Assembly (NCBI GenBank): GCA_030019415.1
Contig: JASEEX010000002.1
Coordinates: forward strand, 3,823 to 67,822
Direction: 5' to 3'
Origin: Thermodesulfovibrionales bacterium
GTDB lineage: Bacteria; Nitrospirota; Thermodesulfovibrionia; Thermodesulfovibrionales; SM23-35
Length of the DNA stretch: 64,000 bases
The notes beneath the pieces are model-generated. The model had not been told where the DNA came from and did no database searches. It worked only from the letters and a program-made list of their open reading frames with translations. How positions within the stretch are numbered: the stretch's first letter is position 1; each line of letters starts with the position of its first letter. The translations under genes and the position numbers were made by a program. Below are positions 21,312 through 57,274 of this stretch, piece by piece.

Positions 21312-22113
21312 CTAACGAAACCATACCTTTGCATAGAGAGACTTTTTCTATTATTGCAGGCAACCTTTCAAGGTACTCTATGATGCCTTCGGCATCTATC
21401 CCTTCCTTCACAAAAAATGCCCTTCCTCCGCTTCTACTCCCCTCACTCTTGATGTTGGGTATCCTCAAATATCCGAAGGCCTTAGATGCCACATAGCCTG
21501 TTGTGTAGTAGGGATCATCAGATACACATAATTCAGCTATCACATGCCCACAGGATGAGACCTTTGACGCAAGGACCAGCGCCTCTTTAACAGTCCCAGT
21601 ATTAATACCATGCCTTGAGAGCCTCGATGAAAGCCCCTTCAATGCCGGCTTAGTAATCCCGAGCCGGGATACCCTTATTCCCCTTTCTCTGTCTGGATCG
21701 AGACGATTGCCCTTTTCGGCTGTAATAATGGCCGCACCTCTCATACCGTCTTTTTTGATCAATTCAAAGGCCCTGTCAATAGCCACCTTCGATACCCCTG
21801 ATGATTGAAGTAACCCCCTCGCCATTTTTTTTCCTTCACCCGGCATGGTATTTTTGATTGTGGCTACAGGTAAAGCCGTGATTGTTTTTGGCTCCTGTTT
21901 TATATCCTCGATTGTAATTATGATTTTATCGGCTTTGCCTCTCGGATGGTTTAATGCCCTCTCAATATATTTTTTAACAACCTCCTGAATTTCTGACTTC
22001 TCATAAATACCTTCCGCACCAGAGATATGAATCTCCTTCTGACTGGCGACTGGCGACTGAGGACTGACGGCTGTTTTAGATGCCCTCATCCTTATGCTCC
22101 ATAGATCCTTCAT
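21283..22113 (-). CDS. bioW: 6-carboxyhexanoate-CoA ligase (pimeloyl-CoA synthetase) BioW
   Basis: Collinear with the remembered Bacillus BioW sequence: SIRMRAS, HISGAE, RGIRVSR, KEALVLASKV, AELCVSDDPYYTTGYVA, GGRAFFV. I place the start at MKDLW (22113), which avoids overlap with mqnC. Confidence 0.75.
   Translation of the reverse strand: MKDLWSIRMRASKTAVSPQSPVASQKEIHISGAEGIYEKSEIQEVVKKYIERALNHPRGKADKIIITIEDIKQEPKTITALPVATIKNTMPGEGKKMARGLLQSSGVSKVAIDRAFELIKKDGMRGAAIITAEKGNRLDPDRERGIRVSRLGITKPALKGLSSRLSRHGINTGTVKEALVLASKVSSCGHVIAELCVSDDPYYTTGYVASKAFGYLRIPNIKSEGSRSGGRAFFVKEGIDAEGIIEYLERLPAIIEKVSLCKGMVSLDEILNRSHI
22041..22075. repeat. Tandem 7-nt array (GACTGGC-type, 5 units) inside bioW
   Basis: gactggc gactggc gactgag gactgac ggctgtt. 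On the gene strand it encodes TAVSPQSPVASQ near the N-terminus. Confidence 0.85.
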
Positions 22114-22144
22114 GGTAGCCTTTTTGCCTCTTGTTTGAGGTCCA

Positions 22145-23281
22145 TCAGAAATATTGAATGATTTTATAGTACGTATTCCTCTGTGCCGGTTTAAATTCGG
22201 CATCCCTTATCGCCTTGATGATATCTTCCTTTGAGACCCTGTAACTTACACCCGTTGATGCTATAACATTTTCTTCTATCATTGTGGAACCAAAGTCATT
22301 TGCTCCAAACCTCAGGGCAACCTGTGCAAGCTTAAGCCCCTGTGTAACCCATGATGCCTGGATATTTTTGATATTGTCGAGATAAATCCTTGAGATTGCA
22401 AGCACCCTCAGATACTCAACAGCAGTAGCAGCAAAGAGTTCTGAGTTCTGAGTTCTGAGTTCTGAGTTTTTACTCTGAGCTCTGAGCTCTAAGCTCTTTG
22501 CTAATTCTGTATTACCCGGCTGGAAACTCCAGGGAATAAAGGCTGTAAAACCTCCAGCTTTATCCTGAAGGCCCCTGATAGCATCCAGATGCTTTATGAT
22601 ATCCTCTGCCTTTTCGATGCTCCCGAACATCATTGTTGCCGTCGTCTTCATGCCAAGTTTGTGTGCCTCTTCCATTACCTTAAGCCATCTATCAGATTTA
22701 ATCTTCTTCGGACTTATCACCTCCTTTACCCTATCAGAGAGAATTTCTGCACCTCCGCCCGGAATAGAGTCAAGCCCTGCATCCCTGAGGAGCCCCAATG
22801 TCTCTCTTATTGTAAGGTTCGCCCTGTCTGCCATATAGCAGATCTCAGGAGGGGAGAAACCATGGATATTCATATCAAATCTGCTCTTTATCTCCCTCAG
22901 CAGGTTTATAAAATAGCTAAGGTCGAGCCCGGGATTTAGTCCTCCCTGAATGAGTATCTGTGTGCCTCCTAATTTTATTGTCTCTTCAATCTTTTTGAGG
23001 AGTTCATTTTTCTCCAAGAGATATGCCTCAGGGTCGTCTTCGTCTCTCCAGAAGGCACAGAAGCGGCATCTGTTTATGCAGATATTTGTATAGTTAATAT
23101 TCCTGTCTATTATAAAAGTGACAATTCCTTCAGGATGTAGTCTTTTTCTCGTTTCATCAGCCATCCGGCCGAGTTCAAGCAGATCAGCCTTTTCAAGGAG
23201 CATCAAGCCTTCTTTCTTCGTAAGACGGTCAGTGTTTTTCTTTATTGGTTTGTTTCTCACTTTTAACTCATAACTTTTCAC
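22145..23281 (-). CDS. mqnC: Radical-SAM cyclic dehypoxanthinyl futalosine synthase (MqnC-like)
   Basis: Motifs DRNINYTNICINRCRFCAFWR and GGTQILIQGGLNP in a CofH/MqnC/MqnE-type fold. The MqnC versus MqnE assignment rests on resemblance to remembered Streptomyces sequences. GTG start at 23281. Confidence 0.6.
   Translation of the reverse strand: MKSYELKVRNKPIKKNTDRLTKKEGLMLLEKADLLELGRMADETRKRLHPEGIVTFIIDRNINYTNICINRCRFCAFWRDEDDPEAYLLEKNELLKKIEETIKLGGTQILIQGGLNPGLDLSYFINLLREIKSRFDMNIHGFSPPEICYMADRANLTIRETLGLLRDAGLDSIPGGGAEILSDRVKEVISPKKIKSDRWLKVMEEAHKLGMKTTATMMFGSIEKAEDIIKHLDAIRGLQDKAGGFTAFIPWSFQPGNTELAKSLELRAQSKNSELRTQNSELFAATAVEYLRVLAISRIYLDNIKNIQASWVTQGLKLAQVALRFGANDFGSTMIEENVIASTGVSYRVSKEDIIKAIRDAEFKPAQRNTYYKIIQYF
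22436..22497. repeat. Tandem 7-nt arrays (GAGTTCT x5, then GAGCTCT x3) inside mqnC
   Basis: gagttct x4, gagtttt, tactct, gagctct x2, aagctct. It encodes LELRAQSKNSELRTQNSEL in-frame. Confidence 0.9.
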
Positions 23282-23291
23282 TTTTAACTTG
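23257..23291. repeat. Tandem 7-nt array (TCACTTT/TAACTTT, 5 units) spanning the mqnE stop and mqnC start
   Basis: tcacttt taactca taacttt tcacttt taacttg. It covers the 14-nt mqnE/mqnC overlap (23268-23281). Confidence 0.85.
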
Positions 23292-24368
23292 TCTATAGAA
23301 CGAATCCCTTTCAGTAGGAACCTTCCCTGCCATCCTTATCAGATATATGAACTGCTCCGGTGTCATTGACTCGGCTGAAAGGGCACCTGCAGAATGGGTA
23401 ATCCTCTCTTCAATAACTGTGCCGCTGAGGTCATCTGCTCCAAAAATAAGTGAAAGCTGAGAGATCTTTTCTCCGAGCATAATCCAATAAGCGGTGATAT
23501 GATCGAAGTTATCGAGTACTACCCTACTTACGGAAATGGTCTTCAGGTCATCTATGCCCGATGAGTAAGAGCCCCCTATTTCGTTGCCCTTTGGATGATA
23601 GGAAAGAGGGATGAATGCCTGGAAGCCACCTGTCCTGTCCTGAAGATCCCTTAGTTTAAGTAAATGGTCAACACGGTGTTTATAGTTTTCAATATGTCCG
23701 TAAAGCATCGTTGCATTCGTCTTAATCCCTAACCTGTGTGCTGTCTCCATAACCTCAAGCCACCTCTCCCCGGAAATCTTCTCGGGACATAGTCTACTCC
23801 TTATCTTATCGTCAAATATCTCAGCACCCCCTCCTGGTATTAATTCGAGGCCGTGTCTTTTGAGGGCAAGTAGTGTCTCTCCCAGACTGAGGCAACTTAT
23901 CCTCGACATATAATCTATCTCGACAGCGGTAAATGCCTTTATATGAAGCTCGGGAAAATTCTTCTTTATCATTGAAAGCATATTCAGGTAGTATTCAAAT
24001 GGCCAGTCAGGATGAAGCCCTCCGACTATATGAACCTCCCGATAAGGTGTGAGGCGTGAGACGTCAGACGTGTAACGTGAAGGCTGAAGTTTTTTAATGA
24101 TTTCATCGATTGTTAATTCAAATGCCCCTTCTTCTCCCTTTGAACGGCTGAAGGCACAGAATCTGCACCGGTTAATACAGATGTTTGTTGGATTGATATG
24201 TCTGTTCCTGATAAAGAATACATTTTTGCCATTTTTCTTCTCAGCCACATGTGAGGCGAGGTCTCCAAGGAAAAAGATGTCCTCTATCTCGAATAATTCG
24301 AGTGCCTCATCCTTAGATACCCTCTCGCCAGCCAATACCTTTTCCTTAATTCTTCTGAGCATAAACAA
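23268..24368 (-). CDS. mqnE: Radical-SAM aminodeoxyfutalosine synthase (MqnE-like)
   Basis: Motifs IKEKVLAGERVS, NRHINPTNICINRCRFCAFSR, VHIVGGLHP, FTAVEI, and MLYGHIENYKHRVDHLLKLRDLQDRTGGFQAFIPL. These match my recollection of MqnE. Confidence 0.6.
   Translation of the reverse strand: MFMLRRIKEKVLAGERVSKDEALELFEIEDIFFLGDLASHVAEKKNGKNVFFIRNRHINPTNICINRCRFCAFSRSKGEEGAFELTIDEIIKKLQPSRYTSDVSRLTPYREVHIVGGLHPDWPFEYYLNMLSMIKKNFPELHIKAFTAVEIDYMSRISCLSLGETLLALKRHGLELIPGGGAEIFDDKIRSRLCPEKISGERWLEVMETAHRLGIKTNATMLYGHIENYKHRVDHLLKLRDLQDRTGGFQAFIPLSYHPKGNEIGGSYSSGIDDLKTISVSRVVLDNFDHITAYWIMLGEKISQLSLIFGADDLSGTVIEERITHSAGALSAESMTPEQFIYLIRMAGKVPTERDSFYRQVKSEKL
24049..24083. repeat. Tandem 7-nt array (GTGAGRC-type, 5 units) inside mqnE
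   Basis: gtgaggc gtgagac gtcagac gtgtaac gtgaagg. It encodes PSRYTSDVSRLTP in-frame, just before the conserved VHIVGGLHP block. Confidence 0.85.
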
Positions 24369-24417
24369 TTATAAATCAAAAGGTATTTGAAAGACCAAGC
24401 CTGAACTTCTTCCAAAA

Positions 24418-25692
24418 CTACTTTATTATGTCTATCCCCATATATGGCCTTAATACCTCAGGAATAACTACGCTTCCATCCTTCTGCTGGTAGTTTTCGA
24501 GGATCGCAATAAGTGTGCGGCCGATTGCAAGGCCAGAACCATTAAGTGTATGGACAAATTCAGTTCCCTTCTTGCCCTCTCGCTTGAACCTTATGTTCGC
24601 CCTCCTTGCCTGGAAATCCGTAAAATTTGAGCATGAAGAGATCTCTCTGTATCTCTGCTGGGCTGAAAGCCAGACCTCGAGGTCATAGGTTTTTGAGGCA
24701 GCAAACCCTAAATCACCTGTACAGAGTGCTACAACCCTATATGGAAGTTCCAACTTCTGAAGGATATCCTCTGCATCTCTTGTCAGGGACTCAAGCCCTT
24801 CATAGGAGTCTTCAGGCTTTACAAATTTAACGAGCTCTACCTTATTGAATTGATGCTGTCTTATAAGGCCCCTCACATCCTTTCCATATGAGCCAGCCTC
24901 ACGCCTGAAGCAGGGTGTATAGGCTGTATAATAAATCGGCAGATCCTCTTCTCTAAGGATTTCATTTCTATGGATATTTGTTACAGGAACTTCTGCAGTA
25001 GGTATTAGATATGACTCAGGATCAGAAATCATGAATAACTCATGGGCGAATTTAGGAAGTTGCCCTGTGCCTATCATGCTCTCTCGATTGACAATAATCG
25101 GAGGAAAAACTTCCTTATATCCCTTTAATGTATTCAAATCCAGCATGAAGTTCATCAAGGCCCTTTCGAGCTTTGCACCAATTCCTTTCATAAGGGCAAA
25201 CCGTGCTCCAGCAATCTTAGATGCCCTCTCAAAGTCAATGATTTCAAGCATTTCACCAATATCCCAGTGATTCATTGGCTCAAAGTCAAATTGCCTCGGC
25301 TCACCCCATCTCCTTATCTCTACGTTTTCTGTCTCATCTTTTCCAACAGGCACAGATTCATGAGGAATGTTAGGGATAAGCAAAAGCTCCTCCATGGAGC
25401 TTTCCTCTAGTTCTCTTAGGCGTTTCTCTTGAAGTGTGATGTAGTCTGAAGTCACTTTTGCTTCCCTTAAAAGCGCCGAGGGGTCTTTACCTTCTTTTCT
25501 AAGTCTGGCTATTTCTTCAGATAATCTGTTCCTCAGCTCCCTCTGGTATTCAATATCCTTGAGCACCATTCTTCTCTCATTTTCTATCTTCAAAAATTTG
25601 TCGAGAATTGAGGGCTCGTACCCTCTATTTTCGAGGGCCTTAACAACCTTCTCCGGATTTCCCATTACAAACCTCGCATCAAGCATCCTCAT
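24418..25692 (-). CDS. serS: Seryl-tRNA synthetase
   Basis: N-terminal coiled-coil arm followed by class II motifs ([24 protein letters not shown]). The start is at MRMLD or MLD, preceded by AGGAGA. The track's longer 5' extension is unlikely. Confidence 0.9.
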
Positions 25693-25755
25693 TTCTCCTT
25701 TCAGATATATTAAACTAATATTTAGACGTATGTAAGTCAAGGAAGGCATCGTTGG

Positions 25756-26400
25756 ATGCTGCCATCCATGAATAAATTACTTGAAATCTACAGGAGGCTC
25801 TATTGTGCCTTTGGACCTCAGTACTGGTGGCCTGGTGAGGCACCATTTGAGGTTGCTATCGGTGCGGTACTTACACAAAACACAAACTGGGGTAATGTGG
25901 AGAAGGCAATAGAGAATTTAAAAAGGGAGAAGGCCTTGAGCGCAAAGAGGATCCATGAGATGAGAACAGGCAGGCTCGCATCATTGATAAAACCAGCAGG
26001 CTATTTCAATATAAAGGCTAAACGACTCAAGGCATTTATAGATTTTCTGATAAATGAATATAATGGAAGCATGGAAAGGATGAAGAATGAGGAGATGCAA
26101 ACCTTACGGGTGAAACTTCTTAAGATTCATGGCATCGGTCCCGAGACAGCAGACTCAATCCTTCTTTATGCCCTAAAAAAACCTGTATTTGTTATTGATG
26201 CCTATACCAAACGGGTCTTATCGCGACATAAGATCATGGGGCATGAGGAGAATTATGAGAAATTTCAAGTATTGTTTCATACAGCACTTAAGAAGGATAT
26301 CCGGCTTTTCAATGAATACCACGCACTTTTTGTAAGACTCGGGAAGACACATTGCAAGACAAAACCAATATGCGGGGGATGTCCTCTTGAGGGAATATAG
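25756..26400 (+). CDS. Endonuclease III-related HhH-GPD protein (COG2231-like)
   Basis: Motifs [40 protein letters not shown], and a C-terminal Cys cluster [13 protein letters not shown]. Confidence 0.7.
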
Positions 26401-26402
26401 AC

Positions 26403-29234: not shown

Positions 29235-29245
29235 GAGGTAATTGA

Positions 29246-29989: not shown

Positions 29990-30007
29990 GGCCTTTAGGA
30001 GGTCGAG

Positions 30008-30451: not shown

Positions 30452-30460
30452 GAGGGAATT

Positions 30461-31900
30461 ATGAACAAACAGGATTCAGGATACAGGATTCAGGATTCAG
30501 GATTAAGGGAGGGGCTGTTTATTATCTTGTTTACTGTTTACTGTCTACTGTTTACTGTCTATTTATCTTCCACACCTGCATATGGTCAGGACAACACCCA
30601 GAAAAAAGATAATCAGAAAATTGTATTAAATCTCGAGCAGTGCATAAAAAAGGCAATTGAGATAAGTCCAGAGATAGGAGAGTCCCGGTATGAGGAAGAG
30701 GTATACAAGTCAAAGAAGCTACAGGCAGATTCAGCGGTCTATCCACAGATAGAAGTCCTTGCCTTGACAGGCCCTTCTCCGAGGGCAAGGGGGGATCAGT
30801 TAGACTCTCCAGATGACTCTACAAGGCCCACCATTAACGGAATCTTTGGTATTGCTGAAGTAACTTTAACTCAGCCTATATATACCTTCGGCAAGATAAG
30901 CAGTTATAAAGAGGCTGCTTTAAGTGGTATAAAAGTAGCAAAGGCAGGTGTAGAGAAAAAGACCTCAGATATTATTTTGAGAACAAAAGAACTCTACTGG
31001 AGCCTCCTCCTTACCAGGGATATTAAAAATCTTGTCCTGGAGATAAAGGACGAATTTGTTACATCCATAGAAAAGGCAGAAAGGCAGCTCGAGGCAGGTT
31101 CTCCATGGGCAGATGAACTGAATCTTTTCAAATTGAGGGCATTCTTAGGCGAGGTTGAGAGGAATCTCAATGAGGCTGAAAAGAGCGAGGCCCTTGCGAA
31201 GAACGCCCTCATGACCAGCCTCGGACTTCCGAAAGGAACAGAGTTTGATATTGCAGAGGCATCTTTATCCCCTGAAGATAAGATGCCTGAAGATATAAAA
31301 AATTACTTAAAAAATGCAACGGAACTGAGACCTGAATTCATCCAGCTCAAGGAGGGCCTGAATGCCAAAAAAGCCCTTCTTGATGCAGAAAAAAGCAATT
31401 TCTATCCTCAGCTTTTTATTGGTTTATCGGGATCTATAGCAGATGCATCAAACAGGAACCGGGTGGAAAACCCCTTTATTTATGACTATTTCAGCCATGT
31501 CTATGGCGCTGCATATCTGGGACTTAAATGGTCTGTTGATTTTGGGATAACACAGGGAAAGGTTAAGGAGGCAGAGGCCGAGTATTATAAATTATTAGAG
31601 AAAAAGAGATTTGCTGATGAGGCAATCCCTCTGCAGGTGAGAAAGGCATATCTTGAATTAGAAGAGGCAAGGAAGAGTATTCCAGAAATGGAGAAGGCTT
31701 ACAAAAATGCAAGAAAATGGCTCGTTGCAGCAATTGCAAACTTCGACCTTGGCATTGGTGAGGCAAAGGAAATAGCTGATGCTGTAACGGCCTATGCCCA
31801 GATGAAGGTAAATTATCTCCGCACTGTGTACAACCATAGAATGTCCTTTGCAAATTTATCTTATGCAACAGGTATAGATATTAAAGAAGTAAAGTCGTAG
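30461..31900 (+). CDS. TolC-family outer-membrane protein
   Basis: 479 aa with a signal peptide and duplicated OEP-type coiled/beta repeats. It is embedded in the mla operon. AGGAGGG lies before the ATG. Confidence 0.75.
   Translation: MNKQDSGYRIQDSGLREGLFIILFTVYCLLFTVYLSSTPAYGQDNTQKKDNQKIVLNLEQCIKKAIEISPEIGESRYEEEVYKSKKLQADSAVYPQIEVLALTGPSPRARGDQLDSPDDSTRPTINGIFGIAEVTLTQPIYTFGKISSYKEAALSGIKVAKAGVEKKTSDIILRTKELYWSLLLTRDIKNLVLEIKDEFVTSIEKAERQLEAGSPWADELNLFKLRAFLGEVERNLNEAEKSEALAKNALMTSLGLPKGTEFDIAEASLSPEDKMPEDIKNYLKNATELRPEFIQLKEGLNAKKALLDAEKSNFYPQLFIGLSGSIADASNRNRVENPFIYDYFSHVYGAAYLGLKWSVDFGITQGKVKEAEAEYYKLLEKKRFADEAIPLQVRKAYLELEEARKSIPEMEKAYKNARKWLVAAIANFDLGIGEAKEIADAVTAYAQMKVNYLRTVYNHRMSFANLSYATGIDIKEVKS
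30470..30504. repeat. Tandem 7-nt array CAGGATT x5 (N-region of the TolC-like signal peptide)
   Basis: caggatt caggata caggatt caggatt caggatt. It encodes QDSGYRIQDSGL. Confidence 0.9.
30530..30564. repeat. Tandem 7-nt array TTTACTG x5 (H-region of the TolC-like signal peptide)
   Basis: tttactg tttactg tctactg tttactg tctattt. It encodes FTVYCLLFTVYL. Confidence 0.9.
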
Positions 31901-31908
31901 GAGGTTTT

Positions 31909-32649
31909 ATGAAAGGAATTCGAGATTCAAGATTCATCCTGTATCATTTGTCATTTTTACTGTTTACCCTGTTAGAAAATGCCCTGCGGCTTGCCACGGG
32001 GTTATTCCTTATTTTACGAACACGGGGTTTAATGCCCCGTGTGAGTTTTCTAACGGGGTTTACTGTTTACTGTTTACTGTTTACTGTTCCTATAGCATAT
32101 GCTGGAGAGCCAACATATCAGGTGAAGCAAACCATTGATGGTGTTCTTGACATTTTAAAGAACAAAGAACTAAAAAAGCCTGAAAAGACAAAAGAAAGGA
32201 GGGCATTGATACGCAAAGTTGTTGGAAATAGATTTGATTTTGAGGAGATGTCAAAAAGGTCCCTCGCCCTTCACTGGCGAGCAAGGTCATCAGAGGAAAA
32301 AAGGGAGTTCGTAGCATTATATAGCGATCTTCTTGAGAGATCCTATATTAAAAAGATTGAAGGCTATGAAGATGAACAGATCTTATATACAGGGGAAACT
32401 ATTGATGGTGACTATGCAGTCGTAAAAACCAAAATAATCACTAAAAGGAATGTTGAGATACCAATAGAATATAGACTAATGAAGAAAAATGCCAAATTTG
32501 AAGTATATGATGTGGTAATAGAGGGTGTGAGTCTTGTGAATAATTATAGAAATCAATTCAACAGGATTATTCGAACCAGCTCATATGCGGAACTCCTCAG
32601 GAGGATGAAGAGTAAACAGGAAGAAGAACTTTTTGTGGAAACCCATTAA
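31909..32649 (+). CDS. mlaC: MlaC / Ttg2D-family periplasmic lipid-binding protein
   Basis: The mature part (from YQVKQTIDGVLDIL to VIEGVSLVNNYRNQFNRII) is typical MlaC. The ATG at 31909 has AGGAGG upstream. The 5' 180 nt is made of a MITE plus heptamers, so the true start and leader are uncertain. Confidence 0.7.
   Translation: MKGIRDSRFILYHLSFLLFTLLENALRLATGLFLILRTRGLMPRVSFLTGFTVYCLLFTVPIAYAGEPTYQVKQTIDGVLDILKNKELKKPEKTKERRALIRKVVGNRFDFEEMSKRSLALHWRARSSEEKREFVALYSDLLERSYIKKIEGYEDEQILYTGETIDGDYAVVKTKIITKRNVEIPIEYRLMKKNAKFEVYDVVIEGVSLVNNYRNQFNRIIRTSSYAELLRRMKSKQEEELFVETH
31962..32063. mobile_element. MITE-like element, family A (TTAGAAA-type termini), inside the mlaC 5' region
   Basis: The termini gtttaccctgttagaaaa and ttttctaacggggtttac are inverted repeats. 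An internal hairpin reads acacggggtttaatgccccgtgt. TTTACTG units flank the element (1 on the left, 4 on the right). Confidence 0.75.
32059..32086. repeat. Tandem 7-nt array TTTACTG x4 (H-region of the MlaC signal peptide)
   Basis: tttactg x4 encodes FTVYCLLFTV, followed by PIAYA-GEP. A fifth unit lies at 31956-31962 on the other side of the MITE. Confidence 0.9.
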
Positions 32650-32703: not shown

Positions 32704-32801
32704 GGGAGTGTATGGGGTTCTGGTGTCCCCCCTGGACTTCAAATCCAGTGTTTCCTGCCAAAATCGGGAAGGGTGGGTTCGATTCCCACACACTCCCGCC
32801 A
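32704..32801 (+). tRNA. selC: tRNA-Sec (anticodon UCA)
   Basis: 8-bp acceptor stem gggagtgt/acactccc, anticodon stem ctgga/tccag with loop cTTCAaa (anticodon TCA). It has a long variable arm, T arm gtggg-ttcgatt-cccac, discriminator g and an encoded CCA. Total 98 nt. Confidence 0.9.
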
Positions 32802-40701: not shown

Positions 40702-41687
40702 GAACCCTTTCCCTCGGCTATTCCCCATGCCCCAATGATACTTTCATATTCTATGCCCTCGTCCGCGGGAAGATCGATACAGAGAATATGGGTTTTAAAG
40801 AGGCCCTGCTAGATGTTGAGACCCTTAATCAGATGGCTTTGCGCTCCGAACTCGATATTACAAAGATTTCATATCATGCCTTCGGCCATCTCCGTGAAGA
40901 CTACTGCCTCCTCCGCTCTGGCAGCGCAATAGGCAGAGGCTGTGGGCCTCTGGTAGTTGCAAAGGAGGACTACACCTTGAAGGACTTAAGGGGGAAAAGG
41001 ATAGCAATCCCTGGCAGGCTTACAACGGCAAACCTGCTTTTACAGCTATTTTCTTCAATCTTCAACCTTCAACCTTCAAATCCCCCTCTACCCCCCTTTA
41101 CCCCGTTAGAAAGCCCTGCCATTTGTGGCGGGGATGATATAGGTAAAATCTCAATTCCTTATAGAAAAGACGGGGCTTTAACCCCGCCTTTTCTAACGGG
41201 GTTTACTAAAGGGGGGCGGGGGGGGATTATTGAAATGCCTTTTAATAAGATCATGGATGCAGTTGTGAAGGGAGATGTGGATGCAGGACTGATAATCCAT
41301 GAAGGAAGATTTACCTATCCTTCTTACGGCTTGAAGAAAGTTTTAGACCTCGGCGAGTGGTGGGAAAATGATACAGGGTTACCTGTACCCCTCGGCGGTG
41401 TACTTGCTAAGAGGAATCTGGGAAAAGACCTGATAAAGAGGGCCGATTCAGTTATAAGAAAGAGTATTGAGTATGCATTAAAACATAGGGATGAGCCAAA
41501 GTTCTATATAAAACAGCACTCCCAGGAACTCGAAGAGGAAGTTATAGAGCAGCATATAACTCTCTATGTGAATGATTATTCTTTAGATATTGGTGAGGAA
41601 GGGTTATCAGCCGTTAGAGAGCTCCTCAGAAAGGCGGAAATGAAAGGGATTATCAAGGGATCGAGAAACTCTCTATGCGTTACGTAA
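40698..41687 (+). CDS. mqnD: 1,4-dihydroxy-6-naphthoate synthase (MqnD), carrying a ~59-codon repeat-derived insertion
   Basis: [57 protein letters not shown] and [13 protein letters not shown] are collinear with the remembered Thermus MqnD. There is an ATGA overlap with the upstream gene. Confidence 0.7.
41053..41080. repeat. Tandem 7-nt array CTTCAAC x4 inside mqnD
   Basis: cttcaat cttcaac cttcaac cttcaaa encodes [10 protein letters not shown]. It directly precedes the intragenic MITE. Confidence 0.9.
41081..41225. mobile_element. MITE-like element, family A, in-frame inside mqnD
   Basis: The core inverted termini are tttaccccgttagaaa (41097-) and tttctaacggggtttac (-41206). They are extended by complementary C-rich and G-rich tracts (ccccctctacccccc / ggggggcggggggg). 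The element has no stop codon in the mqnD frame. Confidence 0.75.
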
Positions 41688-45996: not shown

Positions 45997-46031
45997 TTAA
46001 CTATCAACTGTTAACTTTTAACTTTTCACTG
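45997..46031. repeat. Intergenic tandem 7-nt array (TTAACTT-type, 5 units) just upstream of tRNA-Arg
   Basis: ttaacta tcaactg ttaactt ttaactt ttcactg. Confidence 0.8.
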
Positions 46032-46038
46032 TCGTAAC

Positions 46039-46167: not shown

Positions 46168-46962
46168 ATGAAGATCCAGGTTCTCAGAAACATTGGCAGA
46201 AGGCTTCTTAAGGAAATTCCAACCATGAGGCTTAGACCGTATACTCAAATAGCTATTGGTGTTGGTGCAGCAGGCGATAAGACCTTCCTTATAGATAAAA
46301 GGGCAGAAGAGATTATTATCTCTGGTCTTGATGAGTCAGGGGAAGCCTTAACACTTATCTCTGAAGAGATTGGTATAAAGGACATAAAAGGCGGAGGTAA
46401 GAAGATTCTTATAGACCCCATTGATGGTAGCAAGAATGCAATCTCGGGAATCCCTTTTTACTGTACATCCGTTGCAGTTGTAAATGGAAATACCCTGGGG
46501 GATATCGAACTCGCATATGTTGTGAACCTCATAAATGGTGATGAGTTCTGGGCAGAGAAGGGCAAGGGCGCATTCTTAAATAGTAAGAGGATATATACAC
46601 AAAGGGACGACGAATTTTATCTTATCGCATACGAGGCGCAGTCCCCTCACAAAGACATTCCACGGATAATTCCACTTCTTTCAAAATCAAGAAAAACCCG
46701 ATGTCTCGGTGCTACCGCACTTGACCTTGCATACCTTGCCTTTGGTGCAATCAGCATCTTTGTTACCCCATCCCTTTCGAGGGGCTTTGACTTCGCAAGT
46801 GGCTATCTGCTTGTAAGGGAGGCCGGAGGGATATTTACGGATATTAAAGGTAATACCATCGAGACCTTCGAAGTCAGCCTTAAAAAAGGTTCCTCACTTC
46901 TCGCATCAGGAAATAAAAGACTCCACGAAAAGGCATTGAGACTCCTGGGTAAACCCCGTTAG
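46168..46962 (+). CDS. suhB: Inositol monophosphatase / fructose-1,6-bisphosphatase family protein
   Basis: Motifs ISEE, LIDPIDGSKN, and ATALDLAYLAFG in an IMPase fold. The stop codon lies inside the adjacent MITE terminus. Confidence 0.75.
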   Translation: MKIQVLRNIGRRLLKEIPTMRLRPYTQIAIGVGAAGDKTFLIDKRAEEIIISGLDESGEALTLISEEIGIKDIKGGGKKILIDPIDGSKNAISGIPFYCTSVAVVNGNTLGDIELAYVVNLINGDEFWAEKGKGAFLNSKRIYTQRDDEFYLIAYEAQSPHKDIPRIIPLLSKSRKTRCLGATALDLAYLAFGAISIFVTPSLSRGFDFASGYLLVREAGGIFTDIKGNTIETFEVSLKKGSSLLASGNKRLHEKALRLLGKPR

Positions 46963-47078
46963 AAGACCTTTCGCCCTTCTAACGGGAATGCTCACACGGG
47001 GCATTGACCCCGTGTTTGCTCGAAAAGGAAATTATTTTCACCCCCGCTGCAAGCAGCGGGGCATTCTAACGGGGTAAA
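46949..47078. mobile_element. MITE-like element, family A (~130 nt)
   Basis: Termini gtaaaccccgttagaa and ttctaacggggtaaa. Internal hairpins are cacacggggcattgaccccgtgt and cccgctgcaagcagcggg. It is collinear with the copy at 59599-59729. Confidence 0.8.
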
Positions 47079-49760: not shown

Positions 49761-49786
49761 CCTTAATAAAATCTTCAGCTTCCTGC

Positions 49787-50185
49787 ATGGGGAATAAATT
49801 AGAAGATGACAGTTACTGCTTTGTATGTGGAGAAAAAAATCCCTATGGCCTTAATCTCAAGTTCTCTCTCCATGAGGGGAAGGCATTAGCTGAATTCACT
49901 CCACAAAAGATCCACCAGGGTTACAAAGGTATCGTTCATGGTGGAATAATCTCTACACTTATTGATGAGGCAATGGTTAAAGTGGCTCTGATGCAAGGGA
50001 TGCCTGCTATTACAGCAGAGATCACTGTAAGATTTAAAAAACCTCTTATAGTTGGAGAAAGAGCAATCATTGAGGCCATCATAACAAATATGTATAAAAG
50101 AATTATTGAGGCATCGGCGAGGATAAAAAAAGCAGATGATACGCTGGTAGCTGAAGGCCATGCCAAGCTACTGAGGTGTGATTAA
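49787..50185 (+). CDS. PaaI-family hotdog-fold thioesterase
   Basis: CFVCGEKNPYGL followed by VHGGIISTLIDEAM, a typical PaaI/4HBT pattern. Confidence 0.7.
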   Translation: MGNKLEDDSYCFVCGEKNPYGLNLKFSLHEGKALAEFTPQKIHQGYKGIVHGGIISTLIDEAMVKVALMQGMPAITAEITVRFKKPLIVGERAIIEAIITNMYKRIIEASARIKKADDTLVAEGHAKLLRCD

Positions 50186-50874
50186 GGGTTCAAATTTGGG
50201 AGATTCACTTTCACAATATACCTCTTTATATCGGTTAAAGGTAAACTAAGGATCAGCATCCCATATTTTATATCCCTTAGTATTTTTACCTCTTCATTTA
50301 CTTTTGGCCCTTTATTGAGAATAAGGATCCCCCCTTTTTTAACAATATGGGATGCCTTTTTTATGAAGTCTTTAATACTGAATAAGGCCCTTGTAACTGC
50401 TACATCAACAGCACGCAAGGGGGACAGAGTCCCCCTTGCGAAATTCCCCTCTTTTAAAGGATACGACTCCCGAACTACCCTTACATCTTCAATCCTCTTT
50501 TCTATCACCTCGATCTTTTTCAATTCGAGTTGTCTTGTGATATGTCTGAGAAAGGCAGATTTCTTTCTTGAGGGTTCGATGAGATACATCTCGATCTCAG
50601 GCCTGATAATCTTTATCGGTATCCCTGGAAACCCGGCACCACTTCCAACATCAGCAACCCTTATCTCACCATCAGGCATTGCCTTCAGATAAAGTGAGGA
50701 ATCGAGAAAGTGCTTGGTGACAATATCTTTGTCTTTCCTGAGACTGGTGAGGTTATACGCCTTATTCCATTTCTTAAGCTCAGAGAGATAGGTAATGAAG
50801 GCCCTGAGCTGATCTATTTCTGGAACAAATCCAAGCTCCTCTAGCCCTCTCTTAAGCAGCTCCTTTGCATCCAC
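50182..50874 (-). CDS. rsmG: 16S rRNA (guanine527-N7)-methyltransferase
   Basis: Motifs WNKAYNLTS, HFLDS, and the SAM site DVGSGAGFPGIP. It lies downstream of mnmG. Confidence 0.85.
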   Translation of the reverse strand: MDAKELLKRGLEELGFVPEIDQLRAFITYLSELKKWNKAYNLTSLRKDKDIVTKHFLDSSLYLKAMPDGEIRVADVGSGAGFPGIPIKIIRPEIEMYLIEPSRKKSAFLRHITRQLELKKIEVIEKRIEDVRVVRESYPLKEGNFARGTLSPLRAVDVAVTRALFSIKDFIKKASHIVKKGGILILNKGPKVNEEVKILRDIKYGMLILSLPLTDIKRYIVKVNLPNLNP

Positions 50875-52705: not shown

Positions 52706-52744
52706 TATCAATTTACTATAAAAGATTCTTTTTACCTTATTCAA

Positions 52745-52786
52745 TTTACCCCGTTAGAAAGCCCTGTCCTTTCTAACAGGGTTTAC
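52745..52786. mobile_element. Minimal family-A hairpin (termini only, 42 nt)
   Basis: tttaccccgttagaaa-gccctgtcc-tttctaacagggtttac. The ubiE stop codon (52783-52785) lies inside its right terminus. Confidence 0.75.
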
Positions 52787-53478
52787 TTCTTTCCCATATA
52801 AATAGAAGCTATTCCTCCTGATAGGCTTTTATAATTAATATTTCTCAATCCCTCGGCTTCAAGTAGTTCTATGACTTCATCTTTTTCAGGAAATCTGACT
52901 ATAGAGGATGAAAGGTAATCATAGGAATATTTTGAGCCTGATATCAATCCTCCTATTTTCGGCATGATATTTTTTAGATAGAAAAGGTATATACTTTTTA
53001 AAATAGGATTTTGTGGCAGAGAAAGCTCCAATATCAAAAGTAGACCATCTTTTTTTAAAACCCTGACCATCTCTCTAATTCCCCTTCTAAAATCATGGAG
53101 GTTCCTGAAACCGAACCCGATGCTGACTGCATCAAAAACCTCATCTTTAAAAGAAAGATGAAAAAGATCAGATTGCTGTAATATTATTCTTCCATTAAGA
53201 CCGGCTCTTTTAATCTTAACCAGACCTATTTTGAGCATCCGGTCTGAAATATCAATTCCTATGATCTTAGCCCCGGGATACCTGATTGCAAACTCCATCG
53301 CCAGGTCACAAGTTCCAGTACAGGCATCCAGTATTTTCCCCAAATTGAAGGATCTTACCTGGTCGGTCAGGGATCTTCTCCATCTTTTATCGAGGTATAA
53401 ACTGAGGACATGATTCAACAGGTCATATCTTTTATATATCCTTCCGAATAATTCAATCAAATATTCTTTTTTTGCCAT
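52783..53478 (-). CDS. ubiE: Demethylmenaquinone/ubiquinone C-methyltransferase
   Basis: Motifs YDLLNHVLSL..D..WR, the SAM motif ILDACTGTCDL, and GFGFRN. Confidence 0.85.
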   Translation of the reverse strand: MAKKEYLIELFGRIYKRYDLLNHVLSLYLDKRWRRSLTDQVRSFNLGKILDACTGTCDLAMEFAIRYPGAKIIGIDISDRMLKIGLVKIKRAGLNGRIILQQSDLFHLSFKDEVFDAVSIGFGFRNLHDFRRGIREMVRVLKKDGLLLILELSLPQNPILKSIYLFYLKNIMPKIGGLISGSKYSYDYLSSSIVRFPEKDEVIELLEAEGLRNINYKSLSGGIASIYMGKK

Positions 53479-54299
53479 TTTGAATCTTTTTGTCCTCTAT
53501 AACCTACAACCGAAATGCCCGCCTTTTTTGATTCTTCAATAATTTCGTTCTTGTTAAGGGTAATGCTATTTTTTGCCTCAACAGCAAGGACCCTTGCGCC
53601 TACCTCGATCATGGCCCTTAATGTATTTAGTCCCACGGCAGGCACATCAAATCTCATATCCTGGTTTGGCTTGCTGACCTTCACGACCACAGCTCCTTCG
53701 CCTGCAAGCCTCCCTCCCCTCCTTATCGCCTCATCTGTTCCCTCAATGGCTTCTACAGCCATCACAGCCTGATTTTTAACCACAACAGTCTGCCCTATGT
53801 CCAGCCTGCCTATCTCCTTCGCAATCTTCCAGCCAAATTCAATATCTTTCCATTCGTCCTCTGTAGGGCTGTCTTCTGTTAGTATTCCCTCGGGTGTAAG
53901 GAGGCCGAAGCTGAAGGATGCTATATTGAGTATGTTAATGCCTTCTTTTTCTATCTCTTTTGCGATAGCCCGTAAGATTGAGTCATCGCTTCTGTCCTTT
54001 AATGAAAAAAGGAGTTTTACAGCCCTCGGGTCTGGTGTGATCTTGCTTTTGTATAGCAGTGATTTCGGCACCTTTCCTGCCATAACTGCCTCTTTTATGC
54101 CGTATTTTGTCAGGATGCCTATTATCTCTCCGAATTTACCGACATTCACCCATTTTATCTCATCCACGTATGAAGATAGTGACCTCTCAGCGAGAGGATC
54201 CAGTGCAATAGCAAAGACGGTGTATCCCTGCGCCCGTGCCTCTGAGGCGATGGCCTTCGGGAGCTCTCCTGTTCCAGAAATCAGACCCAATTTCTTCAT
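53457..54299 (-). CDS. lpxI: UDP-2,3-diacylglucosamine pyrophosphatase LpxI (DUF1009)
   Basis: Motifs LGLISGTGELP, LDIGQTVVVKNQAVMAVEAIEGTDEAIRRGG, and KPNQDMRFDVPAVG. Confidence 0.75.
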   Translation of the reverse strand: MKKLGLISGTGELPKAIASEARAQGYTVFAIALDPLAERSLSSYVDEIKWVNVGKFGEIIGILTKYGIKEAVMAGKVPKSLLYKSKITPDPRAVKLLFSLKDRSDDSILRAIAKEIEKEGINILNIASFSFGLLTPEGILTEDSPTEDEWKDIEFGWKIAKEIGRLDIGQTVVVKNQAVMAVEAIEGTDEAIRRGGRLAGEGAVVVKVSKPNQDMRFDVPAVGLNTLRAMIEVGARVLAVEAKNSITLNKNEIIEESKKAGISVVGYRGQKDSKWQKKNI

Positions 54300-54315
54300 A
54301 TAAATACCTCATTCA

Positions 54316-55098
54316 TTATCTACAGATACCTCTTTTATTCTTCTGTTGTATGAATTCAATGAGGTGCTTTATTTCGTCCGTGTATGGGAGGTCTTCCTGG
54401 ATCTTCTTTATTGCATCTTTTAGTGTCCGCTTTTCTCTGAAAAGTATCTTGTATGCCTTTTTAAGTTCATTTATTGTTGAGTCAGAGAAGCCATGCCGCT
54501 TGAGACCAATAGTATTAAGGCCGAAGAGTCTTGCCCTTGCTCCTGATGCTATCATATAAGGTGGGATATCCTGTCCTACACCGCTGAAGCCACCAACCAT
54601 TACATAAGCTCCGATTCTTGTAAACTGGTGTACTGCAACGAGTCCGCCTATTACAGCACAGTCTTCCACGACCACATGGCCTGCAAGGGTTGCAACATTT
54701 GCCATTGTTATGTGACTGCCTATCTTGCAGTCATGGGCAATATGGACATAAGCCATGAGAAAATTATTGTCTCCAATTATGGTTATACCGTCTCCGCCAA
54801 CAGATGCTCTATGTATTGTTGTATATTCCCGAATGATATTATTGTTTCCTATCTTTACGCCTGTCTTTTCTCCTTTATATTTCAAGTCCTGTGGTGGGAG
54901 CCCGATGCTTGTGAACGGATAGATTATGCAGTTTTCACCTATCTCGGTGTTGCTTTCTATGATTACATTTGAAACAAGTTTTGTGCCTTTCTTTATATGG
55001 GCTCCCTCTCCCATAATACAGAATGGCCCGATATAGGTCTCTTCATCTATTTCTACGTCCGGGGCTATGATTGCTGTAGGATGAATCTCCCTTTTCAT
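54316..55098 (-). CDS. lpxA: Acyl-ACP:UDP-GlcNAc O-acyltransferase
   Basis: Left-handed beta-helix hexapeptide repeats and a C-terminal helical domain (LFGLNTIGLKRHGFS). Confidence 0.9.
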   Translation of the reverse strand: MKREIHPTAIIAPDVEIDEETYIGPFCIMGEGAHIKKGTKLVSNVIIESNTEIGENCIIYPFTSIGLPPQDLKYKGEKTGVKIGNNNIIREYTTIHRASVGGDGITIIGDNNFLMAYVHIAHDCKIGSHITMANVATLAGHVVVEDCAVIGGLVAVHQFTRIGAYVMVGGFSGVGQDIPPYMIASGARARLFGLNTIGLKRHGFSDSTINELKKAYKILFREKRTLKDAIKKIQEDLPYTDEIKHLIEFIQQKNKRGICR

Positions 55099-55101
55099 AA
55101 T

Positions 55102-55536
55102 TTATATCTCTTCATCCGTGACCATAGCAGTAAATTCAGCTTCGGCGACAACCTTTTCCTCAACAACCGCATTGCCAGAGAACTTCCAAACATTTCCTCT
55201 GTGTTGCAGGATGTTGACCTCTAATCTGAGTTGGTCCCCGGGGACGACCGGTTTTCTGAATTTTGCCTTCTCTATACTCATGAAATAAACGGATTTGCCT
55301 ACATTAGCACCTGGACGAAAAGCCAGTATACCTGCTACCTGTGCCAGTGCCTCTATTATCAAGACGCCAGGCATTATGGGGTGACCTGGGAAATGCCCCT
55401 GAAAGAACCCTTCATTAATGGTCACATTTTTTATTCCCACTGCCTTTACCCCTGGTTCTATATCAATGATTCTGTCTACTAACAGAAATGGATATCTGTG
55501 AGGTAAAAATTTTTGTATCTCCTTTATGTCCATCAT
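55102..55536 (-). CDS. fabZ: 3-hydroxyacyl-ACP dehydratase
   Basis: Motifs LPHRYPFLLVDR, FFQGHFPGHPIMPGVLIIEALAQ. Confidence 0.9.
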   Translation of the reverse strand: MMDIKEIQKFLPHRYPFLLVDRIIDIEPGVKAVGIKNVTINEGFFQGHFPGHPIMPGVLIIEALAQVAGILAFRPGANVGKSVYFMSIEKAKFRKPVVPGDQLRLEVNILQHRGNVWKFSGNAVVEEKVVAEAEFTAMVTDEEI

Positions 55537-56555
55537 ACAGGATTCCTCCTTTCAAGTTCCTCTATCCTTTTTTCGAGCTCCTTTATCTTTTTGTAGAGTT
55601 CTGGCAGTTTTGAAATGACTGCCTGTGACTTCAACCAATCTCTATGTGGCATTGCGGGTGAACCAGAATAGATTCCCTTTGAAACATCTCCTAAAACACC
55701 TGACTGGGCACCAATTATCGTCCCAGACTCTATCTTTACGTGGTCAGTAACCCCAACCTGACCTCCCAGGGTAACAAAATCACCTATCTCGGTGCTACCC
55801 GCTATTCCAACTTGGCCAACAATAATAGCGTTCTTGCCGATTTTGACATTATGTCCTATCTGAACAAGATTATCTATCTTCGTGCCTCTCCCTATTATTG
55901 TGTTCCCCGTTGTTGCCCTATCAATGGAGACATTGGAACCTATCTCAACATCATCCTCAACAATAACACCTCCTACTTGAGGAATCTTATAGTGCCTGCC
56001 TTCATCAAAAACATAACCGAAACCATCAGAACCTATCACTGAACCTGAATGTATTATGACATTATTGCCAATGGTGACCTTCTCTCTCACCACCACATTC
56101 GGGTAGATAATGCATCCCTTTCCTATTGTCGTATTCTCACCTACAAATACAAAAGGATAAATAACGGTTCCTTCGTCTATGAAAACACCGTCTGAAATAT
56201 AGGATAAGGGAAAGATCGAGACATCTTTCCCTGTCCTTGCCTTCTTGGACACAATGGCTTCCTTGCTTATCCCTATAGGTTTTTTTGGTTTTATATAGAA
56301 ATGCTCAAGTAGTTTTGCAAAGGCGAGATGGGGGTTTGGTACCCTCAATTGTGTTATATTGAGGCCATCTATCGGTTCTTTTACTATCACGCATGATGCC
56401 TTGCATCCCGAGAGATACTTTCTATAACTGTCTGCTGAGAGAAAGGTAATATCTCCTTCTTGAGCTCCGTTTATACCTGATACACCTGTGATTTCGATAT
56501 CGGGGTCACCGATTATCTCCCCATTAAGCAGGGATGCAATTTCTCTTAGTTTCAC
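55533..56555 (-). CDS. lpxD: UDP-3-O-acylglucosamine N-acyltransferase
   Basis: N-terminal LpxD domain followed by hexapeptide repeats and a C-terminal coiled tail. The GTG start at 56553-56555 lies inside the MITE terminus. Confidence 0.9.
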   Translation of the reverse strand: MKLREIASLLNGEIIGDPDIEITGVSGINGAQEGDITFLSADSYRKYLSGCKASCVIVKEPIDGLNITQLRVPNPHLAFAKLLEHFYIKPKKPIGISKEAIVSKKARTGKDVSIFPLSYISDGVFIDEGTVIYPFVFVGENTTIGKGCIIYPNVVVREKVTIGNNVIIHSGSVIGSDGFGYVFDEGRHYKIPQVGGVIVEDDVEIGSNVSIDRATTGNTIIGRGTKIDNLVQIGHNVKIGKNAIIVGQVGIAGSTEIGDFVTLGGQVGVTDHVKIESGTIIGAQSGVLGDVSKGIYSGSPAMPHRDWLKSQAVISKLPELYKKIKELEKRIEELERRNPV

Positions 56556-56726
56556 CCCGCACCACCTCTTTTCATGACTCTATCTGTAATGTCCATGCCT
56601 TTATCCCGCACCTTTCCCGAATACCCCGCAGCAAGCTGTGGGGTGAAGGGTTCTCAAATAAATCCTTTCGGCGGGGTCGAATACCCCACTGAAAGGTGCG
56701 GGATTTATTCGTGGTGCGGGGTTCAC
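56551..56726. mobile_element. MITE-like element, family B (176 nt), filling the skp-lpxD intergenic space
   Basis: Termini ttcaccccgcaccac and gtggtgcggggttcac. The internal module ccccgcagcaagctgtgggg is shared with family A copies. Confidence 0.8.
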
Positions 56727-57274
56727 TTCTTCTTTTTTGCCGGTGTTGCCTTTAACTCGTTATATTTTTTTATGATTGTATCAGTAATGTCTATGTCCTT
56801 TTTGGAGTAAAGGACTATGCTCCCGGCCTTCTCTACTATGAGGATGTATCCTTCTTCTTCTCCGATCCTCTCTACTATTTCCCGAATCTCTTTTATGATC
56901 GCATCCGTTAGTTCCAGTTCTTTCTTCTTGACCTCGGCCTGTGAATCCTGGACAAGCCTCTGGTATTCCCTGAGCATTTTTTCGAGTTCTTCCTCTTTGC
57001 TCTTTTTTGCCTCTGCGGAGAGTACGGAGACCTGTTTTTCCAGATCGCTTTTTAGCTTTTCTATGGCCTTGCCCTTCTCATCTATAATTGACTGTTTCGA
57101 TTTTATTAAGGACTCAAGGTCAGACTTAGCCTTCTTTCCAGCATCGGATTCATTTAGAACTTTGTGGAAATCTACACACCCTACCTTTATTGAATCAACC
57201 CCAAAGGAAAAAGTGGCAAGTGACAAGTGAAAAGTGAAAAGTGATAAAATACAAATGATAAGCTTTGTTTTCAT
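56723..57274 (-). CDS. skp: Periplasmic chaperone Skp (OmpH)
   Basis: A signal peptide followed by a long charged coiled-coil region and a Lys-rich tail. It lies between bamA and lpxD, as in many diderms. Confidence 0.75.
   Translation of the reverse strand: MKTKLIICILSLFTFHLSLATFSFGVDSIKVGCVDFHKVLNESDAGKKAKSDLESLIKSKQSIIDEKGKAIEKLKSDLEKQVSVLSAEAKKSKEEELEKMLREYQRLVQDSQAEVKKKELELTDAIIKEIREIVERIGEEEGYILIVEKAGSIVLYSKKDIDITDTIIKKYNELKATPAKKKK
57211..57245. repeat. Tandem 7-nt array (sense-strand TCACTTT-type, 5 units) encoding the Skp signal-peptide core
   Basis: Plus strand: aagtggc aagtgac aagtgaa aagtgaa aagtgat. It encodes LSLFTFHLSLAT. Confidence 0.9.

Follow-up and report, generated by a model that had tools for sequence, protein, structure and literature searches.

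Heptanucleotide tandem arrays of near-constant length in a Thermodesulfovibrionales bacterium and its relatives

Bacterial arrays of heptanucleotides have been on record since 1990 and form the most frequent class of long simple sequence repeat (SSR). The heptamers of cyanobacteria, called short tandemly repeated repetitive (STRR) sequences, were reportedly described in that year by Mazel and colleagues. The present work concerns arrays of this kind in a 64,000-nt stretch of DNA from a Thermodesulfovibrionales bacterium of the lineage SM23-35 (contig JASEEX010000002.1, positions 3,823-67,822 of the forward strand), the whole of which is referred to below as the window, and in the corresponding loci of related genomes. 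In Xanthomonas and in Nostoc PCC 7120, the G-rich heptamers GGGAATC and GGGGA(C/T)T respectively show an excess at period 7 only and a preference for four units; the repeats occur singly and as convergent inverted pairs (70-75 per Xanthomonas genome), have no association with insertion sequences and reach up to 26 units, and their type is kept between related genomes while their length varies (Rehm et al. 2015, PMC4692102). The heptamer TAACTGA is directly repeated in marine Beggiatoaceae and in some Cyanobacteria and Bacteroidetes; the counts published for Beggiatoaceae are 68, 40, 19, 2 and 1 sets at two, three, four, five and six copies, and the few copies within open reading frames (ORFs) lie solely in the stop-free orientation and at protein peripheries (MacGregor 2015, PMC4679880). 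Both papers cite Mrazek et al. (2007) for the abundance of heptanucleotides, the leading class of long SSR in many non-pathogen genomes, and for the proposal that slippage related to the footprint of the polymerase is involved, and surveys of long SSRs noted a preference within genes for units whose length is a multiple of three. Literature searches returned no report of heptamer arrays for Nitrospirota.

The arrays of the window are interpreted here, with a probability of roughly 0.55, as heptanucleotide and, to a minor extent, octanucleotide arrays of the STRR or long-SSR kind which pervade an uncultured clade of Thermodesulfovibrionia and which would be produced by misalignment, bounded by a ceiling on copy number and filtered by the reading frame. 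Arrays were detected in the window with Tandem Repeats Finder (TRF) and with a lag-autocorrelation scan evaluated at a score cut-off of at least 12, using Markov shuffles as the control. A genome scan with the MqnE-like protein as query produced 80 orthologous loci, all from metagenome-assembled genomes (MAGs) of Nitrospirota/Thermodesulfovibrionia, and a metagenome scan produced 80 further loci; the combined comparator set comprises about 145 Thermodesulfovibrionia loci (1.69 Mb). The close relative used for detailed comparison, L002 (MAG223), has about 95% nucleotide identity with the window over 20 kb. One Logan contig (L001) is identical in sequence to window positions 9340-24506, and the metagenome scan for near-identical strains, in which strain-level polymorphism was sought, returned nothing closer than 82% protein identity.

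The periodicity of the arrays is sharply restricted. Seven period-7 arrays in the window reach the cut-off, compared to 0.05 in the Markov shuffles, and at the remaining periods from 2 to 15 no arrays reach it beyond one at period 8 and the harmonics at period 14. When the same cut-off is applied at periods 4-12 to the 80 loci of the genome scan (1.17 Mb), 133 arrays of period 7 and 20 of period 8 are obtained, with at most 5 at each other period. Arrays of 6-mers and 9-mers are nearly absent from the related loci, although such units stay in frame at every step, and their rarity implies that the 7/8 register is mechanistic in origin rather than selective. Low-GC Thermodesulfovibrio-like loci and several high-GC loci contain zero arrays in the census, so the trait is specific to a clade, and the occurrence of array-rich and array-free lineages within one order offers a comparative route to the responsible enzyme.

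A preliminary description of the window had proposed that the arrays share a constant size of about 35 nt despite their unrelated units, and that this constancy argues against simple slippage; a census of repeats in the related loci, which samples one genomic neighbourhood, bears out both proposals. The lengths do not follow a geometric distribution, and unconstrained slippage is therefore insufficient as the sole account of them: the mode lies at 31-33 nt, which corresponds to four units plus 3-5 nt, lengths of 41-57 nt are nearly empty, and a second cluster at 58-74 nt is made up of two-module tracts. Tracts longer than one module are chains of 2-3 differing modules, and each module in the window measures 27-39 nt. 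In the full 1.69 Mb, 46 of the 47 perfect runs of at least 27 nt fall within 27-35 nt, and the single exception measures 40 nt; the abundance of perfect runs is about level from two to four units, rises locally at 31-33 nt and, but for that one run, breaks off at a wall of 35 nt, and period-8 arrays end at 34-38 nt. An assembly artefact behind the wall can be ruled out by reasoning, because imperfect tracts of 60-104 nt are assembled, the loci come from many pipelines, and the empty range of 36-54 nt sits below the usual k-mer limits. The frame filter was also considered as the sole source of the length mode and was rejected, since the 28 intergenic arrays have a mode identical to that of all arrays. 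The ceiling of about five units is real, is common to other heptamer-bearing bacteria, and is sharpened in this clade by a three-unit frame filter. The units themselves are diverse, with 147 distinct units among 241 arrays, and a common ACT/AGT core, tried as a defining motif, was dropped because its enrichment is merely 2-fold (49% vs 24%). That dozens of unrelated units, mostly not G-rich, obey the same ceiling argues for a property of the machinery that generates or deletes the arrays.

Most modules are in frame and free of stop codons on the sense strand, and are hence translated, either as loop inserts of 10-12 residues or as segments of signal peptides, a coding placement which the preliminary description had overlooked. 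In the related loci, 130 of the 158 arrays of at least 25 nt (about 82%) lie within open frames of at least 120 codons, and the density of arrays is 0.15 per kb in coding and 0.20 per kb in non-coding DNA. Pfam matches and translation place the arrays of the window within domains or loops of the histidine kinase (HATPase_c), MnmA, BioW, MqnA/D and two Mqn radical S-adenosylmethionine (radical-SAM) enzymes, and in signal-peptide n- and h-regions of the TolC-like, MlaC and OmpH proteins. Translation through a heptamer array passes through all three frames, so its units need to be free of stops on the sense strand. TCA/TGA is 2.2-fold enriched in the units, and the bias on the sense strand, where 53% of units contain TCA and 1% contain TGA, is due to the avoidance of stop codons. 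This avoidance, together with the preserved frame, argues that the arrays are translated rather than removed. Repeats of non-triplet units can be a major and fast source of loop and signal-peptide variation in housekeeping genes, in three-unit steps only, and in practice the inserts interfere with sequence alignment, with the calling of start codons and with estimates of identity for metagenome-assembled genomes.

The comparison of close relatives indicates how the arrays change. All indels of at least 4 nt between the window and L002 over the 20 kb fall at arrays, at MITEs (miniature inverted-repeat transposable elements) or at small intergenic hairpins (individual sites are compared in Table 1). 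Among 30 close pairs the array length differs by 0 nt in 15 cases, by +21 nt in 1 and by +24 nt in 4, with arrays of 12 nt and 36 nt, a difference of three units, at the mnmA site; at the other sites the resident module is replaced by another module or element. The sole non-triplet array indel, of 14 nt (two heptamers), separates L026 (12865-12880) from L115 at 99.6% identity, and lies in a non-coding region downstream of a folK-like gene. One array in L084 is perfectly homogenized, while the same site in L005 is heterogeneous at equal length. In about 80 relatives, the MqnE-like enzyme's loop between FQPGNTEL and ATAVEYL holds from 0 to 3 modules, whose units are unrelated. As judged from these sequence comparisons, the arrays turn over much faster than their flanks.

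Convergent inverted pairs of the Xanthomonas type often make up the longer tracts of the relatives, where they fold into bulged hairpins, and are absent from the window arrays: no convincing complementary partner arm was found for any of the window's own arrays, and the single arrays are no palindromes. Folding gives z<-2 for 36% of the 113 MqnE loop regions (the best at -9) and z<-3 for 12 of the 41 pairs of adjacent modules, one of which is a perfect intergenic pair at L051 13550-13619. The complementarity of adjacent modules at the level of units is modest (a mean of 4.0 vs 3.5 of 7 positions), and the hairpins in a subset of pairs emerged by folding.

The MITE family of the window has the ends CCCCGTTAGAAA...TTTCTAACGGGG and a length of 29-121 nt, and every copy has a direct TTTA or TAAA on both sides. 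At window position 1852 exactly 33 nt, comprising the 29-nt MITE and one TTTA, are absent from L002, and TTTA stands once at this empty site, so TTTA is a 4-bp target-site duplication (TSD). Subtraction of the 92-nt MITE and one TTTA from mlaC gives back the array (TTTACTG)5+TT in phase, and the mlaC ORF remains open through the insertion. When all copies are brought to one orientation, the target consensus is TTTAC[T/C], and the (TTTACTG)5 array therefore represents five tandem MITE targets. There are 6-8 copies in the window, 0 in the 21 kb of L002 and one each in 3 of the roughly 145 other loci, most of which contain arrays. The arrays do not depend on the MITE, whose insertion in a TTTACTG array follows from its preference for TTTAC[T/C]. 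An ATG within the mlaC copy (at about 32034) would give a signal peptide of normal appearance (MPRVSFLTGFTVYCLLFTVPIAYA) and is a possible true start of MlaC, the other candidate being the upstream ATG at 31909.

The resemblance of these arrays to the repeats of Xanthomonas and Nostoc extends to the 7-nt unit, the four-unit preference and, in relatives of the window, the inverted pairs. Those genomes, however, have one G-rich unit each, which is mostly intergenic and under-represented in genes, whereas here there are many unrelated units, mostly not G-rich, about 82% of the arrays are in frame in genes, and the ceiling is 5 units. Of the features that characterize bacterial heptanucleotide arrays as a class, the over-representation of period 7 and the range of 2-6 copies with a preference or ceiling near four are found here, and the predominantly intergenic location is not. 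As the units are mostly not G-rich, the G-quadruplex rationale for the number four is inapplicable. The TAACTGA system likewise has heptamers whose counts collapse past four copies, and the window units TTTACTG and TTAACTG resemble TAACTGA, but that system uses a single unit, which lies in the vast majority of cases between genes, just upstream of start codons, and for which a role in translation has been proposed, while the units here are diverse and mostly coding. Unlike in the surveyed long SSRs, non-triplet units are here the main coding repeats.

Two further systems resemble the arrays in their coding position. Rickettsia palindromic elements (RPEs), said to have been described by Ogata and colleagues in 2000, are reportedly small non-coding repeats that lie in frame in protein-coding genes at tolerated surface positions. 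They form a single family of palindromes 100-150 bp long that lack an internal periodicity of 7 nt. Palindromes that lie in frame in conserved genes, are missing at the corresponding sites of relatives and recur in unrelated genes are also found here, in the form of the MITE and of the two-module element of the relatives, and the MITE (96 nt in mlaC and 105 nt in mqnA/D), a C-run/G-run palindrome and the two-module hairpin elements are all RPE-like, but single arrays differ from RPEs in being non-palindromic. In Neisseria opa genes, CTCTT repeats in the region coding for the signal peptide are perfect, hypervariable and frame-switching. The arrays here share with them the encoding of a signal-peptide hydrophobic core by a non-triplet tandem repeat, but differ in that they are stable in length or change in three-unit steps.

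In the interpretation adopted here, an endogenous misalignment during replication or repair, with an intrinsic register of 7-8 nt, would amplify short seeds, and arrays of more than about five identical units would be unstable, since misaligned homology above about 25-30 bp would lead to collapse or divergence. A segment of about 25-30 bp is the minimal efficient processing segment of E. coli recombination. In coding DNA only three-unit changes (21 or 24 nt) would survive, giving the visible state of one resident unit plus three; a copy or gene-conversion process would spread units among the sites of one genome; and selection would retain arrays in tolerant places, with hydrophilic units in surface loops and T-rich units in signal peptides. 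Several observations weigh against this interpretation. The cause assigned to the ceiling, instability past about 25-30 bp of misaligned homology, is one that we infer; the census covers one genomic neighbourhood across many genomes, and orthologous sites are counted repeatedly; and, with regard to the frame filter, perfect arrays of two and three units equal those of four units in coding abundance, so that the filter does not produce the mode on its own. A clean de novo birth of an array was sought and none was observed, the passage from 1.5 to 4.5 units in one step exceeds what one slip of one unit can yield, and intermediates with a shifted frame would be expected to be lethal in, for example, bioW or the mqn genes. 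Perfect arrays of 4.0-5.0 units adjoin non-periodic flanks with sharp edges. Within a locus, 9.2% of non-adjacent pairs of arrays have identical units, vs 1.3% between loci, a difference of about 7-fold which is confounded by the differing base composition of the genomes. Finally, five genomes carry a 73-nt two-module element, (TAGGGRT)4-AGYAAAAGAMAAAAAAC-(YAAYCCC)4, in the loops of MqnE, the MqnC-like enzyme and MnmA, with 83% column identity. It encodes peptides like GVRDxGLG..KTNPxxPxPNP, and the GGGGATT repeat of Nostoc is complementary to its C-rich arm, the arms (AATCCCC)n being equivalent to (GGGGATT)n. The sharing of units within genomes and the dispersed element are not predicted by local slippage alone, and they suggest a component of copying or dispersal. 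Of the templated or element-associated process put forward in the preliminary description, a templated or dispersal component retains some probability, while an association with the MITE, target-site-primed synthesis from it and an insertion footprint are unsupported.

Because no birth has been captured, and because the jump from 1.5 to 4.5 units and the sharing of units across sites go beyond slippage alone, a live if unlikely rival is a dedicated templated writer or mobile-element process that installs modules of about 4.5 units, or inverted two-module elements of about 70 nt, in one step, with selection acting thereafter. The writer might be a reverse-transcriptase- or telomerase-like enzyme, or an alternative end-joining polymerase with realignment and snap-back, or the elements might be non-autonomous, heptamer-armed and moved by transposition. 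The sharp-edged perfect arrays, the shared units and the 73-nt element favour such a process, as do the inverted pairs that fold with z to -13, which is expected of snap-back synthesis, the wholesale differences between arrays at one site in 95%-identical genomes, and the single genome-wide unit of other taxa. It is opposed by the 147 distinct units, by the lack of flanking target-site duplications at the arrays, by the three-unit length changes and same-length homogenization, which resemble in-situ dynamics, and by the fact that no candidate enzyme gene was seen in the window. L011 carries an element of the 73-nt type where five relatives show an empty site, which would be expected of a writer, but the flanks of this insertion are unusually divergent, suggesting that the allele was imported by recombination. 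This case, with an element of 69 nt, had also been considered as a clean birth, and was set aside because, given the divergent flanks, the allele was probably imported. The specific form in which a dedicated enzymatic process writes whole modules of about 4.5 units of 7-8 nt together with their inverted copies in one step is regarded as slightly less probable. If it were true, a single class of mobile or templated insertion without genes would comprise the heptamer arrays of Nitrospirota, Cyanobacteria, Xanthomonas and Beggiatoaceae, and in this clade the writer would be a constant source of peptide inserts in frame and even of entire segments of signal peptides.

The remaining explanations have lower probabilities. 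Selection for a fixed length, with the array acting as a functional nucleic-acid element such as a binding site for an oligomeric protein, a G-quadruplex or a hairpin, is improbable. Across many species periodic arrays occupy the same loops, the complementarity of arms is kept with differing units in differing species, and G-quadruplex formation has been given as the reason for four units in Xanthomonas; but the units here are unrelated and mostly not G-rich, so that G-quadruplexes cannot account for the ceiling, and the arrays lie on either strand, in loops, signal peptides and intergenic DNA, without a common position relative to genes. Their sequence, and even their presence, is not conserved between 95%-identical genomes, the window arrays have no complementary partner, and an Rfam search of the window at the gathering score matched only tRNA-Sec and tRNA-Arg, with no family over the arrays or MITEs. 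It is very improbable that the arrays are products or footprints of the MITE, left by target-site-primed synthesis or by excision. The preliminary description had noted that the MITE terminus in mlaC runs directly into the array and that some units mirror the MITE ends. The junction does read as described, with GGGG-TTTAC abutting TTTACTG units, and 2 of 9 MITE copies lie within 30 nt of an array, compared to 1.1% expected. The mirroring was not confirmed: GGGG is the end of the MITE, TTTA is its TSD, and the string GGGGTTCAC, which occurs twice, belongs to a different hairpin element whose end lies at 56718, 490 nt from the TCACTTT array. Both adjacencies are accounted for by the TTTAC[T/C] preference together with shared permissive sites. 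The TSD has 4 bp against a period of 7, the insertion at the L002 empty site is a clean 29+4 nt, the mlaC array exists without the MITE in L002, and arrays are abundant in loci that lack the MITE, so that an origin as footprints is refuted for this MITE family. Almost no credence is given to phase variation, in which the arrays would be contingency repeats switching genes by frameshift like the CTCTT repeats of Neisseria opa. Several arrays do lie in the signal-peptide-coding 5' ends of envelope genes (TolC-like, MlaC and OmpH), but most are imperfect and are found in housekeeping enzymes (MnmA, BioW and Mqn), the TolC-like arrays are identical in length in L002, and the differences between close relatives in coding DNA are 0, 21 or 24 nt, with no frameshifted allele seen.

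The arrays of the window are listed in Table 1 together with the MITE copies. Each of the eight arrays named in the preliminary description is present at or within a few bases of the position given for it, and the list was incomplete, lacking those at 4436, 19734, 22436, 31918 and 41052.

Table 1. Arrays, MITE copies and related elements in the window, with the state of the site in the close relative L002, and copies of the 73-nt element in other loci.
Position	Strand	Feature	Basis and context	State in L002
1856-1884	.	Shortest MITE copy, 29-nt hairpin	Flanked TTTA/TTTA	Empty site
4436-4470	-	Heptamer array, sense AAAAGTN x ~5	TRF and own scan; encodes VKVKREKLKIKS, HATPase_c-domain loop of PAS histidine kinase	C-run/G-run palindrome replaces array (opposite window ~4433-4456)
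19734-19769	+	Octamer array AGGATTCA x4.5 (36 nt)	TRF and scan; in frame in mnmA (QDSRIQGFKGSRE)	12 nt (1.5 units)
22041-22075 (also called 22041-22067)	-	Heptamer array, sense CAGTCNC (unit GACTGGC)	In frame, BioW N-terminal loop, VSPQSPVASQ	Site and phase kept; unit GACTTTT/CACTTTT instead; extra 33-nt module
22436-22497 (62 nt)	-	Two adjoining modules, sense AGAGCTC x3 then AGAACTC x4.7	TRF and scan; encode KSLELRAQSKNSELRTQNSEL, FQPGNTEL...ATAVEYL loop of MqnE/CofH-type radical-SAM enzyme	One single module of different sequence
23259-23290	-	Degenerate heptamer array, sense AAAAGTN (unit ACTTTTA)	76% matches, weakest of the listed arrays	25 nt shorter than window
24045-24085	-	Degenerate heptamer array, sense ACGYCTC (unit GTGAGNC)	TRF score <30; own scan; in frame in loop of MqnC-like radical-SAM enzyme, encoding QPSRYTSDVSRLTP	AGTCNNN units, 15 nt less than window
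30470-30508	+	CAGGATT x5.6	Encodes N-terminal QDSGYRIQDSGLR segment of TolC-like outer-membrane efflux protein	Equal length, 2 substitutions
30528-30561	+	TTTACTG x4.4-4.8	Encodes LFTVYCLLFTV, hydrophobic core of TolC-like signal peptide	Identical length
31918-31936	+	GATTCAA-type array x2.7	MlaC N-terminus, IRDSRF	
31953-32090	+	(TTTACTG)5+TT array, broken after 1.6 units by MITE	MlaC signal peptide; TRF part 32058-32088, x4.4	Degenerate array, no MITE
31967-32058		MITE copy, 92 nt	mlaC signal-peptide region; TTTA duplicated, 92+4 = 96 nt, in frame	Absent
41052-41079	+	YCTTCAA x4 array	Start of 174-nt in-frame insertion splitting VitK2_biosynth (MqnA/D) domain	
41079-41228	+	C-run/G-run palindrome AATCCCCCTCTACCCCCCTTTA ... 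TAAAGGGGGGCGGGGGGGGATT	MITE 41101-41201 nested at centre	
41101-41201		MITE copy, 101 nt	TTTA TSD; 101+4 = 105 nt, in frame in mqnA/D, ORF open	
45997-46032	+	Heptamer array AACTNTT x ~5, intergenic	6 nt upstream of tRNA-Arg(CCT)	
46954-47074	.	MITE copy, 121 nt	TAAA TSD; away from arrays	
52749-52781	.	MITE copy, 33 nt	TTTA TSD	
57211-57244	-	Heptamer array, sense TCACTTN x4.9	Encodes SLFTFHLSLATF, OmpH/Skp signal-peptide hydrophobic core	
59604-59724	.	MITE copy, 121 nt		
63250-63321	.	MITE copy, 72 nt	TAAA TSD	
L011 3036-3108; L048 5150-5222; L044 2443-2512; L054 10727-10802; L068 1933-2006		Copies of the 73-nt element		

Some of the sites in Table 1 have further features. The array at 23259-23290 bridges a gene junction: it provides the C-terminal tail of the MqnC-like gene with its TGA stop and continues into the MqnE-like gene's GTG start. 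The TolC-like gene (30470-30561) and mlaC (31918-32090) have the same layout at their starts, with an array of GATTCAG or GATTCAA type followed, after about 20 nt, by a TTTACTG array, and the whole signal peptide of these neighbouring genes resembles a duplicated or copied cassette. The C-runs and G-runs at 41079-41228 belong to a second palindrome family (AATCCCCCCTTACCCCCCTTTAC / TAAAGGGGGGCGGGGGGGGATT), which is also present in the histidine-kinase loop of L002 and in the MqnE loop of L096 and L097 and is likewise in frame in conserved genes. A third hairpin family, with the ends CCCCGCACCAC...GTGGTGCGGGG, is found at 60048-60081, with TAAA at 60044 and 60082, and at 56603-56726; it is the origin of the GGGGTTCAC string at the ompH stop codon and adjoins no array.

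Elsewhere in the window, GC skew tracks gene orientation, and a tRNA-Sec gene at 32704-32801, directly 3' of mlaC, indicates that the organism uses selenocysteine. In the divergent intergenic region on the serS/uvrB side (25701-25766), L002 holds extra segments of 28 nt and 18 nt, the former (CAGGACGTTGATAATATCTACGTCCTTC) being a hairpin. An 11.5-kb island at 7331-18802 is missing in L002, where its flanks are joined directly; its genes encode BrxL (a Lon-like ATPase), a PglY/BrxC-like protein, a 3'-phosphoadenosine-5'-phosphosulfate (PAPS)-reductase/4Fe-4S protein and small DUF433, DUF7718 and DUF5647 proteins, and from this gene content it looks like a defence island similar to type 4 bacteriophage exclusion (BREX) systems.

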